64,000 bases of DNA from the NCBI RefSeq assembly GCF_013315695.1, contig NZ_CP054353.1. The stretch is one strand, 5' to 3'. Positions 1,163 to 7,181 of this stretch are shown piece after piece. The DNA is from Escherichia coli (GTDB taxonomy: Bacteria > Pseudomonadota > Gammaproteobacteria > Enterobacterales > Enterobacteriaceae). Below the pieces are notes generated by a model. That model was not told the DNA's origin. It saw only the letters and a program-made list of their open reading frames with translations, and did no database searches. Every line of letters starts with the position of its first letter. The stretch's first letter is position 1. A program made the position numbers and the translations under genes.

Positions 1163-1516
1163 ATGTCATTTCTGTTACCCATCCAACTCTTCAAAATTCT
1201 TGCCGATGAAACCCGTTTGGGCATCGTTTTACTGCTCAGCGAGCTGGGAGAGTTATGCGTCTGCGATCTCTGCACTGCCCTCGATCAGTCGCAGCCCAAG
1301 ATCTCCCGCCATCTGGCATTACTGCGTGAAAGTGGGCTATTGCTGGACCGCAAGCAAGGAAAGTGGGTTCATTACCGTTTATCGCCGCATATTCCAGCAT
1401 GGGCGGCGAAAATTATTGAGCAGGCCTGGCGATGCGAACAGGAAAAGGTTCAGGTGATTGTCCGTAACCTCGCCAGACAAAATTGTTCCGCAGACAGTAA
1501 GAATATTTGTAGTTAA
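1163..1516 (+). CDS. arsR: Arsenical resistance operon repressor ArsR (ArsR/SmtB family)
   Basis: 117-aa ORF with winged-HTH and the As(III)-binding motif ELCVCDLC; followed by arsB and arsC. Confidence 0.9.
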   Translation: MSFLLPIQLFKILADETRLGIVLLLSELGELCVCDLCTALDQSQPKISRHLALLRESGLLLDRKQGKWVHYRLSPHIPAWAAKIIEQAWRCEQEKVQVIVRNLARQNCSADSKNICS

Positions 1517-1570
1517 AAAATTTATCTAAACACATATGAATATTCGAATGTGTTTTATCAAGGAGGCATG

Positions 1571-2860
1571 ATGTTACTGGCGGGCGCTATCTTTGTCCTG
1601 ACCATCGTATTGGTTATCTGGCAGCCGAAAGGTTTAGGCATCGGCTGGAGTGCGACACTGGGCGCCGTACTGGCGTTAGTTACTGGCGTGGTCCATCCGG
1701 GCGATATTCCGGTGGTGTGGAATATCGTCTGGAACGCGACGGCGGCGTTTATAGCCGTCATTATCATCAGCTTGCTGCTGGATGAGTCCGGCTTTTTTGA
1801 ATGGGCGGCGCTGCACGTCTCACGCTGGGGCAATGGGCGCGGTCGCTTGCTGTTTACCTGGATTGTCCTGCTCGGTGCTGCCGTTGCAGCTCTGTTTGCC
1901 AATGATGGCGCGGCGCTTATTTTGACACCGATTGTCATCGCCATGCTGCTGGCTTTAGGGTTCAACAAAGGCACTACGCTGGCGTTTGTTATGGCGGCCG
2001 GATTCATTGCCGATACCGCCAGCCTGCCGCTTATTGTCTCTAACCTGGTGAATATCGTTTCGGCAGATTTCTTTAGCCTCGACTTTCGCGAATACGCCTC
2101 GGTGATGGTGCCGGTGGATATCGCTGCAATACTGGCTACCCTGGTGATGTTGCATCTCTATTTCCGCAAAGATATTCCGCAGAACTACGACATGGCGCTG
2201 CTAAAATCTCCCGCAGAAGCGGTTAAAGATCCTGCCACCTTCAAAACTGGCGGGGTTGTTTTACTGCTTCTGCTGGTGGGATTTTTCGTCCTGGAACCGC
2301 TCGGCATTCCGGTAAGCGCCATTGCGGCAGTGGGCGCGCTGATATTATTTGTCGTCGCTAAACGCGGTCATGCGATTAATACGGGTAAGGTGCTGCGCGG
2401 TGCGCCCTGGCAGATTGTCATCTTCTCGCTCGGCATGTATCTGGTGGTTTATGGCCTGCGCAATGCCGGATTAACGGAATATCTTTCTGGCGTACTCAAC
2501 GTGCTGGCGGATAACGGCCTGTGGGCGGCGACGCTCGGCACCGGATTCCTCACCGCCTTCCTCTCTTCTATTATGAACAATATGCCGACGGTACTGGTTG
2601 GCGCGTTGTCCATTGATGGCAGCACGGCATCTGGTGTCATCAAAGAAGCGATGGTTTATGCCAACGTAATTGGCTGCGATTTGGGGCCGAAAATTACACC
2701 GATTGGTAGCCTGGCAACGCTGCTCTGGCTGCACGTACTTTCGCAGAAGAATATGACTATCAGCTGGGGATATTACTTCCGTACAGGGATTATCATGACC
2801 CTGCCGGTGCTGTTTGTGACGCTCGCCGCGCTGGCGCTTCGTCTCTCTTTCACTTTGTAA
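1571..2860 (+). CDS. arsB: Arsenite/antimonite efflux pump ArsB
   Basis: ORF 1550..2860 is a polytopic membrane protein; start moved to ATG 1571 ([10 protein letters not shown]..., 429 aa), 4 nt after RBS aggagg at 1561-1566. Confidence 0.9.
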
Positions 2861-2872
2861 TGAGATACTGAT

Positions 2873-3298
2873 ATGAGCAACATTACTATTTATCACAACC
2901 CGGCCTGCGGCACGTCGCGTAATACGCTGGAGATGATTCGCAACAGCGGTACAGAACCGACCATTATCTATTATCTGGAAACTCCACCCACACGCGATGA
3001 ACTGATCAAGCTCATTGCCGATATGGGGATTTCCGTTCGTGCGCTGTTGCGTAAAAACGTTGAGCCGTATGAGGAACTGGGCCTTGCAGAAGATAAATTT
3101 ACTGACGATCGGTTAATCGACTTTATGCTGCAATATCCCATCCTGATTAACCGCCCGATTGTGGTGACACCGCTGGGAACTCGCCTGTGCCGCCCTTCAG
3201 AAGTGGTGCTGGAAATTCTGCCAGATGCGCAACAACGCGCGTTCACCAAGGAAGATGGCGAGAAAGTGGTTGATGAGGCGGGTAAACGCCTGAAATAG
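2873..3298 (+). CDS. arsC: Arsenate reductase ArsC (glutaredoxin-coupled)
   Basis: 141-aa ORF MSNITIYHNPACGTSRNTLEMI... with the catalytic Cys in the HNPACGTSR motif; last gene of arsRBC. Confidence 0.9.
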   Translation: MSNITIYHNPACGTSRNTLEMIRNSGTEPTIIYYLETPPTRDELIKLIADMGISVRALLRKNVEPYEELGLAEDKFTDDRLIDFMLQYPILINRPIVVTPLGTRLCRPSEVVLEILPDAQQRAFTKEDGEKVVDEAGKRLK

Positions 3299-3299
3299 C

Positions 3300-3321
3300 T
3301 AAAGGGGGATATGCCCCCTTA
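3300..3321. terminator. Hairpin agggggatatgccccctt between convergent arsC and the ArsR-family regulator
   Basis: 7-bp GC-rich stem (aggggg.../...ccccct) immediately after the arsC stop, followed by tatttgtt. Confidence 0.5.
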
Positions 3322-3639
3322 TTTGTTCTTCGTGGCTCCTTCGCCATCTGTTTTGCTGTTTACGCAGCACTCCTCACGTAAAAATTCAATTATCGCTTCC
3401 AGCATTGCGTATTGCGAAACACACATCAGCGTCCGACTCTCACGGTTTTGTTTGACCAACCCTACCGATACCAGTGCTGAAATATGGTGACTGAGTGTAG
3501 AGCCGGGTATCCCAAGCTGCTTTTGCAACTCACCGACCGGCAAACCTTGTTCCCCCGCTTTGACCAGATGCTTAAATATGAACAAACGGGTCGGGTGACC
3601 TAGCTCTTTCAGCGCTTTAGCAACTTCTTCCAACTGCAT
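3319..3639 (-). CDS. ArsR/SmtB-family transcriptional regulator with C-terminal vicinal cysteines (candidate organoarsenical or metal sensor)
   Basis: ORF 3319..3702; preferred start ATG at 3639 (MQLEEVAKALKELGHPTRLFIFKHL..., 106 aa) preceded by SD gagggga; HTH LPVGELQKQLGIPGSTLSHHISALVSVGLV; C-terminal EECC pair; divergent from the ArsP-like permease. Confidence 0.7.
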   Translation of the reverse strand: MQLEEVAKALKELGHPTRLFIFKHLVKAGEQGLPVGELQKQLGIPGSTLSHHISALVSVGLVKQNRESRTLMCVSQYAMLEAIIEFLREECCVNSKTDGEGATKNK

Positions 3640-3663
3640 ATGACTCCCCTCTGTCTGGTTGAT

Positions 3664-3720
3664 ATTTCGATAATACCAGAAATATCTTGATTTGAATTTC
3701 ATTTCGATTATTCTGGAAAT
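3664..3720. promoter_or_regulatory. Two 20-bp dyad-symmetric sites (ATTTC-N10-GAAAT) in the divergent promoter region; candidate operator
   Basis: atttcgataataccagaaat (3664-3683) and atttcgattattctggaaat (3701-3720) are 16/20 identical, each with 5-bp inverted arms; they sit between the regulator start (3639) and the permease start (3746). Confidence 0.4.
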
Positions 3721-3745
3721 ATAGATTTATTCAATGAGGTTACGT

Positions 3746-4747
3746 ATGAGTAGTTGGCTTGCGATGCTGCAAGATGCCGCAGAGATGTTTGTGTTTCTCG
3801 CCGTCGAGCTTTCTTTGCTGTTTATAGTGATTAGTGCCGGTGTCAGCCTGATAAGACAAAAGGTGCCAGACCATAAAATCCAGCAGATGATGGGGGCCAG
3901 AAAAGGGAGAGGCTATCTCCTGGCTGCTCTGTTGGGAGCCGTTACCCCGTTCTGTAGTTGCTCGACAATACCCATGTTACGTGGATTGTTATCAGCGAAA
4001 GCCGGGTTTGGTCCGACCCTCACTTTTTTATTTGTTTCCCCATTACTTAATCCCATTATCGTCGGGTTAATGTGGGTGACCTTTGGCTGGAAAGTTACCT
4101 TGTTGTACGAGATTATCGCCGCCGGCGTCTCCGTACTTGCCAGTATTATCCTGGATTCCCTGGGATTTGAACGTCATATCATTGCCAGTAAAAGCTCATC
4201 AGCAAATTGTTGTGCTCCAGCCAAAACTTCGCCGGGGACGACATATACGCCAATAAAAGTGAGTTGCTGTAGTCCAGCGGCTAAAGCCATTGAGAAACCT
4301 GTAGTAAACTGTTGCAGTACCAAAGCTGTGGTAAGTATTAATCCCATAAAACTAGCCACCAAAGATGCGTTGCAACAGTTTAAAGATGTACTGCCATATC
4401 TTTTGTTAGGGGTATTAATAGGCTCTTTTATTTATGGCTTTATTCCCTCAGAGTGGATTGCCGCTCATGCAGGGGCAGATAATCCCTTCGCCATCCCATT
4501 GAGCGCCGTTGTTGGTATTCCGCTATATATCCGGGCAGAGGCAGTTATCCCTCTGGCATCTGTTTTGATGACAAAAGGAATGGGTCTGGGAGCATTAATG
4601 GCATTAATCATCGGCAGTGCCGGCGCAAGCCTGACGGAAGTGATATTACTTAAATCAATGTTCAGAATACCGATGATAGTTGCATTCCTGACGGTTATCT
4701 TAGGTATGGCTATCTTGATGGGCTATTTGACTCAAATGCTATTTTAA
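3746..4747 (+). CDS. arsP: ArsP-like permease (putative organoarsenical efflux permease) with a Cys-rich cytoplasmic loop
   Basis: Polytopic membrane ORF (3734..4747; start preferred at ATG 3746 after SD tgagg). Contains TPFCSCSTIP (nt 3944-3973), which matches the TPFcSCSxxP motif I recall for ArsP methylarsenite permeases; also has three CC pairs (NCCAP, SCCSP, NCCST). Confidence 0.6.
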   Translation: MSSWLAMLQDAAEMFVFLAVELSLLFIVISAGVSLIRQKVPDHKIQQMMGARKGRGYLLAALLGAVTPFCSCSTIPMLRGLLSAKAGFGPTLTFLFVSPLLNPIIVGLMWVTFGWKVTLLYEIIAAGVSVLASIILDSLGFERHIIASKSSSANCCAPAKTSPGTTYTPIKVSCCSPAAKAIEKPVVNCCSTKAVVSINPIKLATKDALQQFKDVLPYLLLGVLIGSFIYGFIPSEWIAAHAGADNPFAIPLSAVVGIPLYIRAEAVIPLASVLMTKGMGLGALMALIIGSAGASLTEVILLKSMFRIPMIVAFLTVILGMAILMGYLTQMLF

Positions 4748-5113
4748 ATAGATGCCAGCAGTAAACTATAAGGAGTATTGTGAGTGCCTTATCCTTCTGA
4801 GTAGAAAATCATAGATAGGATAATCCTTAAAAATAACAAATAACTTAACTAATGCTTTGAGAATGATGACGGATCCGTCAGTAAGTCATCAATCGACAAT
4901 CACCACGCAATCATGCTTCTCTGACATTTTATCGGAGAAGCAATGTCTCTTTGTCTCAGTATCATCCCCCTTTTAAAGGGTAGATTTCAGTCGCCAATAC
5001 AACACATTTTTAAATACACTTTAACCTGGTTCATTATTACACATCTAAAACATCACAAAAATATCACTTCACACACTATCGGAGAACATCATAACTTCGG
5101 TAATGACTCCAAC

Positions 5114-5617
5114 TTATTGATAGTGTTTTATGTTCAGATAATGCCCGATGACTTTGTCATGCAGCTCCACCGATTTTGAGAACGACAGCGACTTCCGTCC
5201 CAGCCGTGCCAGGTGCTGCCTCAGATTCAGGTTATGCCGCTCAATTCGCTGCGTATATCGCTTGCTGATTACGTGCAGCTTTCCCTTCAGGCGGGATTCA
5301 TACAGCGGCCAGCCATCCGTCATCCATATCACCACGTCAAAGGGTGACAGCAGGCTCATAAGACGCCCCAGCGTCGCCATAGTGCGTTCACCGAATACGT
5401 GCGCAACAACCGTCTTCCGGAGCCTGTCATACGCGTAAAACAGCCAGCGCTGGCGCGATTTAGCCCCGACATAGCCCCACTGTTCGTCCATTTCCGCGCA
5501 GACGATGACGTCACTGCCCGGCTGTATGCGCGAGGTTACCGACTGCGGCCTGAGTTTTTTAAGTGACGTAAAATCGTGTTGAGGCCAACGCCCATAATGC
5601 GGGCTGTTGCCCGGCAT
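5114..5617 (-). CDS. insB: IS1 InsB (expressed as InsAB' transposase by -1 frameshift)
   Basis: 167-aa [28 protein letters not shown]... overlapping the insA 3' end in the -1 frame. Confidence 0.9.
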
Positions 5618-5811
5618 CCAACGCCATTCATGGCCATATCAATGATTTTCTGGTGCGTACCGGGTTGAGAAGCGGTGTAAGTGAACTGCAGTTGCCATGT
5701 TTTACGGCAGTGAGAGCAGAGATAGCGCTGATGTCCGGCGGTGCTTTTGCCGTTACGCACCACCCCGTCAGTAGCTGAACAGGAGGGACAGCTGATAGAA
5801 ACAGAAGCCAC
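5536..5811 (-). CDS. insA: IS1 InsA (transposition inhibitor / N-terminal part of InsAB' transposase)
   Basis: 91-aa [40 protein letters not shown]... with zinc-finger Cys motifs; the A6C frameshift motif ttaaaaaactc is present at its 3' end. Confidence 0.95.
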
Positions 5812-6142
5812 TGGAGCACCTCAAAAACACCATCATACACTAAATCAGTAAGTTGGCAGCATCACCCATACAACGACATAATAAAATATCAGCAAGAATT
5901 CCAAAAAGAATGTTACAAGCAAGTTAAAGATTTTACAACACCCTCTCGATACAATAGAATTAAAAAATGGGCACAAATGTCTGAATATCAATTCGAAATA
6001 TTTCAACACGATACGTTTCATCCTAAAAAAATGTCATACGCACCTTATTTAAAGAGATCGCTACCTGATGAAAAAACTATAAATTATGGGGTAGAAATAG
6101 AAACACCAATTGGCAAAAGAATTCGCTGGTAATGACTCCAAC

Positions 6143-6646
6143 TTATTGATAGTGTTTTATGTTCAGATAATGCCCGATGACTTTGTCATGCAGCTCCACC
6201 GATTTTGAGAACGACAGCGACTTCCGTCCCAGCCGTGCCAGGTGCTGCCTCAGATTCAGGTTATGCCGCTCAATTCGCTGCGTATATCGCTTGCTGATTA
6301 CGTGCAGCTTTCCCTTCAGGCGGGATTCATACAGCGGCCAGCCATCCGTCATCCATATCACCACGTCAAAGGGTGACAGCAGGCTCATAAGACGCCCCAG
6401 CGTCGCCATAGTGCGTTCACCGAATACGTGCGCAACAACCGTCTTCCGGAGCCTGTCATACGCGTAAAACAGCCAGCGCTGGCGCGATTTAGCCCCGACA
6501 TAGCCCCACTGTTCGTCCATTTCCGCGCAGACGATGACGTCACTGCCCGGCTGTATGCGCGAGGTTACCGACTGCGGCCTGAGTTTTTTAAGTGACGTAA
6601 AATCGTGTTGAGGCCAACGCCCATAATGCGGGCTGTTGCCCGGCAT
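6143..6646 (-). CDS. insB: IS1 InsB (InsAB' by frameshift)
   Basis: Identical 167-aa InsB ORF. Confidence 0.9.
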
Positions 6647-6840
6647 CCAACGCCATTCATGGCCATATCAATGATTTTCTGGTGCGTACCGGGTTGAGAA
6701 GCGGTGTAAGTGAACTGCAGTTGCCATGTTTTACGGCAGTGAGAGCAGAGATAGCGCTGATGTCCGGCGGTGCTTTTGCCGTTACGCACCACCCCGTCAG
6801 TAGCTGAACAGGAGGGACAGCTGATAGAAACAGAAGCCAC
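6565..6840 (-). CDS. insA: IS1 InsA
   Basis: Identical 91-aa InsA ORF. Confidence 0.95.
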
Positions 6841-7181
6841 TGGAGCACCTCAAAAACACCATCATACACTAAATCAGTAAGTTGGCAGCATCACCGAATT
6901 CGCTTATCAAATCATTACCAGAATATAATCCCATAATATTGAACATTAGCGCTTTATAATCATTGAATAAAAATAGATTTTATGCACCTTTAAAAAAAGG
7001 CTATTTTATGGGGCGATGGATACTCATGTCACGCCCCAAAATTAACAGAATTAAACTAAACAGAAGGGATATAAACATCAGACAGGTTTACGTTACTATC
7101 AGGCATATCGCCTCAGAATCAGATGAAAACTATAAAGAAATATCTATTATGGTTTTAATATTTGTTGATAAGGATAGTAAC

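Follow-up and report, generated by a model that had tools for sequence, protein, structure and literature searches.

Two dyad-symmetric sequences in a divergent promoter of Escherichia coli as candidate operators of the adjacent ArsR/SmtB-family regulator

A 64-kb stretch of Escherichia coli DNA (contig NZ_CP054353.1, hereafter the window) carries a gene for an ArsR/SmtB-family regulator and, divergent from it, a gene for an ArsP-family permease. Two dyad-symmetric sequences lie in the intergenic region that separates them (3640-3745). Comparative sequence analysis makes it very probable that the two dyads are operators of the adjacent ArsR/SmtB-family repressor. The best-supported mode of action is classic ArsR/SmtB repression plus autorepression. 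Such a mechanism, a repressor of this family acting on dyad operators in a divergent promoter, would be ordinary and unsurprising.

A preliminary description of this DNA had reported two 20-bp sites of the form ATTTC-N10-GAAAT, and both are present, site 1 at 3664-3683 and site 2 at 3701-3720. They agree at 16/20 positions, as it claimed, or at 18/22 once the AT shared after each is counted, and the 37 bp given as their spacing is correct as a start-to-start distance. The sites do lie between divergent starts when the starts with good ribosome-binding sites are taken, the regulator ATG at 3639 (- strand) and the permease ATG at 3746 (+ strand). They are direct repeats of each other and each is also internally dyad-symmetric; site 1 is the better palindrome, its 8-nt arms GATATTTC and GAAATATC being 100% complementary. 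A search of both strands for the same dyad beyond the pair returned only these two exact matches in the window, where dinucleotide shuffles predict 0.10 ± 0.30 and two or more were reached in 0/100 shuffles. Elsewhere in the window the relaxed pattern ATTTCGA-N8-GAAAT with up to two mismatches occurs at chance level only (7 found, 7.6 expected), and the dyad is absent from the promoter regions of the canonical arsR gene and of dinQ.

For a cross-species comparison we assembled 80 loci (397 kb, one genome per species) whose regulators are 56-91% identical to the window protein. The homologue search had yielded hundreds of proteins from Gammaproteobacteria and beyond, and the loci represent Enterobacterales, Aeromonas, Vibrionaceae, Shewanella, Colwelliaceae, Endozoicomonas, Pseudovibrio and Desulfobacterales. 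They contain 93 exact copies of ATTTC-N10-GAAAT where base composition predicts 0.69. Ninety-one of these copies lie within 300 bp upstream of a regulator (82) or permease (75) gene, many serving both; the other two (loci L073 and L081, both Desulfobacterales) stand directly upstream of a more distant ArsP_1 permease. A site with at most two arm mismatches is found within 130 nt of the regulator start in 75/80 regions, and in 45 of those 75 loci the end of this regulator-proximal site falls 19-24 nt before the regulator ATG. The DNA between and outside the sites varies freely while the dyad is kept in nearly all loci.

The permease is divergent from the regulator in 45/80 loci, as in the window; in the others it is co-directional, farther off, or not found within the 5 kb of sequence examined. 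Where no permease adjoins it, the regulator has in most cases one site only (no more than one arm mismatch), 20-60 nt upstream of its own start, and co-directional or distant permeases (L022, L050, L063, L074, L078, L083) are preceded by two sites ~50 bp apart. Because lone regulators have one site and displaced permeases two, the motif tracks the two genes independently, which is the pattern expected of an autoregulated repressor with the permease as its target. The earlier suggestion that an ArsR-family dimer controls both its own gene and the permease is therefore supported, on purely comparative grounds (93 copies against 0.69, and the promoter register described below). A further arrangement occurs in Vibrio (L015-L018, L025, L033, L035, L038, L042, L064, L077), where the permease promoter is surrounded by two operators and a third lies at the regulator promoter, in intergenic regions of 190-265 bp. 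In these loci the last site is closely preceded by an additional, overlapping repeat that resembles a half-site, ATTTCTATAATTCGAGAA.

The operators were aligned using 101 sites picked by their outer pentamers only. Conservation extends symmetrically beyond the selected pentamers, to G6 (91/101), A7 (100/101), T14 (75/101), a left TAT flank and a right ATA flank; the right arm frequently departs from the consensus at its inner TC. Because of this symmetric conservation the full putative operator is a dyad of ~26 bp, TATATTTCGA-N6-TCGAAATATA, longer than the 20 bp originally noted. At site 1 a 28-bp block, TGATATTTCGATAATACCAGAAATATCT, shows only three single-base differences across nine Enterobacterales, Aeromonas and plasmid copies, and its flanks vary. 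The bases that follow the downstream operator (GAAAT-ATAG; window 3721-3724 and most loci) are conserved more than the dyad symmetry explains, which accounts for ATA; this ATAG lies at or near the predicted permease start point.

The sites also keep a fixed register with the predicted promoters. In 40/40 loci with a site pair, the upstream site is followed after 2-7 bp by a TTGAC-like -35 and, 16-18 bp further on, by a -10 located within the downstream site or overlapping it. Inter-site spacing falls into two classes, 37-39 bp and 48-52 bp. In the shorter class, which comprises E. coli, other Enterobacterales, Aeromonas and plasmids, the downstream site is 11-12 bp closer and the -10 lies in its spacer, the best -10 starting at position 9 of the site in 7/7 loci. 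In the longer class (Vibrionaceae, Shewanella, Colwelliaceae and others) the -10 reads TATAAT or TATATT, and its last three bases (two in four loci) are the first bases of the downstream site; because of this overlap the downstream site would cover the start point. On the regulator side, the centre of the proximal site is usually TAATAT or TATTAT (regulator strand), and Vibrio loci without an adjacent permease have a TTGCA(A/T) -35 exactly 17 bp upstream of this central hexamer. In E. coli, each dyad carries the predicted -10 of one of two back-to-back promoters. The two sites are predicted to be unequal in function: site 1 belongs to the regulator promoter and borders on the permease -35, and site 2 overlies the permease -10.

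The label ArsR-like given to the left gene is borne out by profile searches. The regulator matches HTH_20 (PF12840) with an E-value of 1.8e-14 and 53.9 bits (cut-off 27), PF01022 with 29.4 bits (cut-off 22) and NF033788 with 61.7 bits (cut-off 55). An AlphaFold 2 (AF2) model of the monomer has the canonical winged-helix fold with a mean predicted local distance difference test score (pLDDT) of 89.7. Its helices (3-13, 16-31, 35-42, 46-58), strands (62-67, 70-75) and final helix (77-95) reproduce the α1-α2-α3-αR-β1-β2-α5 order of the ArsR/SmtB fold, and the top Foldseek matches are all ArsR/SmtB proteins, with HlyU among the structural relatives. Together with the inverted-repeat type of operator known for ArsR/SmtB repressors, seen here as two dyads in a divergent promoter with fixed promoter register, profiles and fold identify the regulator as a bona fide ArsR/SmtB winged-helix family member. 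In an alignment of 24 regulator homologues the recognition-helix motif STLSHH is invariant, as are Cys73, Cys91 and Cys92 (24/24). Cys73 lies in strand β2 just ahead of α5, and Cys91-Cys92 in the last turn of α5. The longest mechanical open reading frame (ORF) for the regulator starts at 3702 and would overlap site 2, but this is not the start conserved in the 24-member alignment; GGAG-type motifs at the position of the ribosome-binding site ahead of the ATG at 3639 occur in orthologues too. Identity with the persulfide sensors BigR and SqrR was rejected (NF040642, 38.3 bits against a cut-off of 155; no Cys in α2, residues 16-31), as was assignment to Rv2640c, whose score is far under the curated cut-off.

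In the mechanism that we propose, one repressor dimer would bind each ~26-bp dyad. Site 1 holds the extended -10 of the leftward regulator promoter, so binding there would amount to autorepression; site 2 holds the permease -10 and reaches the predicted start, so that a dimer at this position would block RNA polymerase at the permease gene. Dimers on site 1 may also assist those on site 2 in shutting the permease promoter. An inducer would be bound by a thiolate site made up of Cys91-Cys92 at the end of α5, probably together with Cys73 of the other subunit. In ArsR/SmtB proteins α5 packs antiparallel on α5' of the other subunit, and because of this packing Cys73' could supply a third thiolate across the dimer interface; we infer an inter-subunit Cys73'/Cys91-Cys92 site on these grounds. 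Once inducer-bound, the repressor would leave the DNA and both the regulator and the permease would be expressed.

Could the regulator bind both dyads and yet act differently at them? The upstream site might activate or anti-repress the permease promoter in the manner of HlyU, a structural relative of the regulator, with repression confined to the downstream site and the regulator's own promoter. The upstream site borders on the -35, with its centre ~47 bp ahead of the predicted permease start, and many permease -35 hexamers are imperfect (TTGATC, TTGATT). In Vibrio, moreover, the upstream member of the pair lies ~87 bp from the regulator-proximal site and is still only 5-7 bp before the permease -35; this placement argues for a role of the upstream site at the permease promoter itself. 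However, the same protein would also sit on the -10/start-point site, a repressing position, its closest relatives of known function (AfArsR, BigR, CzrA) are repressors, and many orthologous promoters have consensus TTGACA/TATAAT hexamers that make activation unnecessary. We regard activation from the upstream site as improbable.

Binding of the dyads by a different protein is very improbable. Candidates would be a global regulator, the As(III)-sensing product of the canonical arsR gene 2 kb upstream, and the SigZ-like sigma factor whose gene follows the regulator in 18/80 loci. Although both a canonical arsR and, in those loci, a sigma gene are close at hand, the motif occurs neither in the arsR promoter region nor anywhere else in the window, persists in species loci that have neither canonical ars genes nor the sigma gene, and marks the promoters of regulators without an adjacent permease; its 7-6-7 dyad has the shape of a dimer-binding site, unlike a sigma -35/-10 pair. 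It is scarcely credible that the repeats are A/T-rich core promoter elements, such as duplicated -10-like hexamers, or RNA hairpins of a 5' leader without any dedicated regulator. There are -10-like hexamers inside both sites, but the best-conserved positions are in the outer arms, including C5, G6 and G16, and not in these -10-like centres, and the register between -10 and downstream site shifts by 11-12 bp between the spacing classes with the dyad unchanged. As for RNA structure, site 1 could fold as an 8-bp hairpin (-7.1 kcal/mol), but site 2 reaches only -1.9 kcal/mol, and neither it nor the intergenic region as a whole (z -0.47 and 0.13) is more stable than shuffled sequence. The arms do not covary but are invariant. 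The RNA-structure reading was rejected on the folding results.

The second gene was described as ArsP-like, and this assignment also holds: the permease matches PF03773 (ArsP_1) with 177.2 bits (cut-off 32.3) over residues 9-330. Its translation reads VTPFCSCSTIP, in which tPF stands before a C(S/T)C motif; this combination is characteristic of the ArsP permeases of cluster 2, which occur in ars operons (PMC4435449). A central loop (window 4240-4390, residues about 165-215) has three Cys-Cys pairs, NCCAP, SCCSP and NCCST, and suggests soft-metal or metalloid binding or delivery. The length of this loop varies among homologues, and plasmid versions of the protein have 345-377 aa compared with 333 aa in the window. 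Identity with the Cu/Zn efflux protein SO_0444 was rejected (NF033936, 109 bits against a cut-off of 300), as was identity with SaoE (85 against 325).

We consider it much more likely than not that the inducer is a thiophilic metal(loid) or else a species that reacts with thiols. Our first candidate is a trivalent arsenical, with the chances roughly balanced for and against it. Pointers to an arsenical are the alignment of Cys91-Cys92 with the arsenite ligands of AfArsR and the TPFCSC ArsP motif of the permease. Gene neighbourhoods add to these. In the window a canonical arsR-arsB-arsC cluster (1163-3298) lies immediately upstream of the regulator; Buttiauxella likewise has arsB and arsC in this place, Hafnia has arsH and an ArsK-like transporter of the major facilitator superfamily downstream of the regulator, and Aeromonas australiensis has arsD and arsA there. 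On a pESI-like plasmid of Salmonella Infantis the regulator heads arsH, a sigma-70-like gene, arsD and arsA, and the permease is divergent. The arsH, sigma-like, arsD and arsA genes have been associated with the poultry strain REPJFX01, in a report that does not name the regulator and permease (PMC12504007).

Sigma factor genes were located at 5648-6193 in L084 (the pESI-like plasmid), 324-938 in L019, 2751-3353 in L043 and in 15 other Vibrio and Shewanella loci. Of these, the Vibrio copy in L019 was scored against the SigZ equivalog profile and exceeds its cut-off; the remaining genes were identified as similar to that copy. The proteins end in a tail with a Cys-Cys pair (EECC... in Vibrio, HVCCHKK in pESI). 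The resemblance of this tail to the EECC motif of the regulator raises the possibility that the sigma factor, too, responds to thiol-reactive or metalloid species. A MAPEG-like membrane protein is encoded in 5/80 species loci. More specifically, and only tentatively, the regulator may be a further type of ArsR sensor, defined by an inter-subunit Cys73' + Cys91-Cys92 site and a 26-bp operator and tuned to trivalent organoarsenicals (methylarsenite, reduced roxarsone), which together with the permease would form a mobile organoarsenical-resistance module. If this is true, the module is sometimes extended by arsH, the Cys-Cys-tailed SigZ-like sigma factor, arsD and arsA, and hundreds of multidrug-resistance plasmids, pESI of poultry-associated Salmonella Infantis among them, have acquired it on segments flanked by IS26.

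Several observations weigh against parts of this interpretation. All comparison loci were retrieved via the regulator gene, so that co-occurrence of motif and regulator is partly built in; the independent evidence in the set is the placement of the sites and the single-site regulator loci only. The sequence is less strictly kept at site 2 than at site 1, with GAATA in the pESI copy and GATTCCAC in one Aeromonas metagenome-assembled genome. The E. coli permease -35 and -10 hexamers match the consensus at only 4/6 positions each, and a generic sigma-70 scan gave no more matches than shuffles and proposed other hexamer pairs; our assignment is preferred because its hexamers are conserved in register across species. 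There is no single helical phase between the spacings, and cooperative binding of two dimers is therefore not implied. With regard to the inducer, ars genes occur within 2.5 kb in only 4/80 species loci, so the arsenic link is weak outside the Enterobacterales/Aeromonas clade, and the commonest extra partner is instead the SigZ-like extracytoplasmic function (ECF) sigma factor. The permease is as similar to SO_0444, a family relative that acts on Cu/Zn (PMC3219624), as to any other named family. Finally, a search of full-text literature outside the subscription journals found no mention of the motif or of the chromosomal and plasmid protein accessions, and the O157 locus tags presumed for the genes likewise returned nothing relevant.

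The features of the locus are collected in Table 1. The hairpin between the convergent arsC and regulator genes is likely to be a bidirectional terminator that ends the regulator transcript at its 3' end.

Table 1. Genes and predicted regulatory features of the regulator-permease locus (window coordinates).
Feature	Position	Strand	Details and basis
GC-rich hairpin AAGGGGGATATGCCCCCTT	3302..3320	.	between convergent arsC and regulator genes; terminator scan
ArsR/SmtB-family regulator gene, 106 aa	3319..3639	-	Pfam HTH_20/HTH_5, NCBIfam NF033788, RefSeq coding sequence
Regulator ribosome-binding site GAGGGGAG	3644..3651	-	4 nt before ATG at 3639; read from sequence
Operator site 1 (candidate)	3661..3686, core 3664-3683 ATTTCGATAATACCAGAAAT	.	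dyad, perfect arms GATATTTC / GAAATATC; cross-species conservation
Predicted extended -10 of regulator promoter TGGTATTAT	3670..3678	-	inside site 1; start predicted near 3663, leader ~24 nt
Predicted permease -35 TTGATT	3687..3692	+	3 bp after site 1; orthologues TTGACC or TTGACA
Operator site 2 (candidate)	3698..3723, core 3701-3720 ATTTCGATTATTCTGGAAAT	.	followed by conserved ATAG; kept in orthologues
Predicted permease -10 TATTCT	3709..3714	+	in site 2 spacer, 16 bp after -35; start predicted near 3721
Permease ribosome-binding site GAGG	3736..3739	+	6 nt before ATG 3746; same start in RefSeq
ArsP-family permease gene, 333 aa	3746..4747	+	PF03773, 177 bits; TPFCSCS motif; loop with three Cys-Cys pairs

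E. coli isolate AF3 shares 3300-4800 with the window at 100% identity, and on the identical chromosome RefSeq annotates the same two coding sequences with the same starts, as 'ArsR/SmtB family transcription factor' and 'permease'. The pair lies there between arsRBC and IS1/yhiS/slp/dctR/chuS. Just downstream of the permease the window has IS1 twice (about 5090-5860 and about 6120-6890; insA/insB ORFs 5114-5811 and 6143-6840); the copies are identical, point the same way and lie ~300 bp apart, and the yhiS-like 407-aa gene found at this position in AF3 is missing. This arrangement of two IS1 copies has an exact match in no complete E. coli genome of the collection. The window also contains an ORF for the type I toxin dinQ (335-487, - strand).

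The regulator-permease pair is present in 2217/5426 complete E. coli genomes (about 40%), and 3035 of the 5426 gave no match; K-12 is not known to carry the pair. A plasmid variant, ~85% identical, occurs on 648 PLSDB plasmids, of which 456 are conjugative; Escherichia contributes 401, Salmonella 185 and Klebsiella 33, and other genera the remainder. Copies of IS26 or IS1 often flank this variant (L002, L084, L085), with blaTEM-1, blaCTX-M-55/65 or tet(A) as neighbours, and the arsH-sigma-arsD-arsA part retained on the pESI-like plasmid has apparently been removed by IS26. In the literature searched we found no prior description of the operator, the regulator subfamily or the E. coli genes. 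The comparative motif provides an operator and a predicted regulon for this uncharacterised protein pair, namely the regulator, the permease and, in some species, downstream genes such as the SigZ-like sigma factor or arsH. If the inducer is an arsenical, the pair would be an unannotated part of ars clusters that are statistically linked to Salmonella Infantis REPJFX01 (PMC12504007) and would be relevant to metal/antibiotic co-selection. The operator and its predicted repressor might also serve as a biosensor part once the ligand is known.

Among solved structures the regulator is best matched by AfArsR of Acidithiobacillus ferrooxidans (PDB 6j05; E 3e-10, template modelling score 0.82-0.90). 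AfArsR is a homodimeric winged-helix repressor, also of the ArsR/SmtB family, and belongs to the As(III)-responsive type 2. Regulator Cys91-Cys92 align with Cys95-Cys96 at the C-terminal end of α5 in AfArsR, which together with Cys102 are its arsenite ligands (PMC11868830). Identity between the two proteins is only about 29%, however, and Cys102 has no equivalent: the regulator has no Cys after Cys92 and none is conserved there in the alignment, so it falls outside the three-cysteine definition of type 2. The regulator family instead has the invariant Cys73 in β2, and its operator sequence and ArsP-type permease target are particular to it. SpArsR of Shewanella putrefaciens 200 is described as an AfArsR-like protein with the vicinal Cys pair only, which responds to methylarsenite and not to arsenite (PMC11868830). 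Going by that description, the regulator resembles SpArsR in having no Cys102 equivalent and in being paired with an organoarsenical-type permease, and its family differs by the extra invariant Cys73.

The permease belongs to the same Pfam family (PF03773) as the organoarsenical efflux permease ArsP of Campylobacter jejuni (Transporter Classification 2.A.119), to which we liken it by family and motif only. It has the universal, membrane-embedded C(S/T)C motif, with tPF ahead of it as in cluster 2, and it adjoins ars genes in E. coli and on the pESI-like plasmid; it differs by its extra cytoplasmic loop with three Cys-Cys pairs. Against SO_0444 and SaoE it scores equally weakly. In the classic architecture of SmtB, CzrA, CadC, BigR and SqrR, imperfect inverted repeats overlap the promoter and autoregulation is common. 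The window resembles it in that imperfect dyads of ~26 bp lie over the predicted -10 elements of both the regulator promoter and the divergent permease promoter, and ligand-relieved repression is expected here as well. These ArsR/SmtB proteins have other motifs, for example ATTC-N8-GAAT for SqrR, with neither the half-site TATATTTCGA nor the 7-6-7 spacing, and where the classic architecture has one 12-2-12 site, two candidate operators flank the -35 and -10 of the permease promoter in the window.

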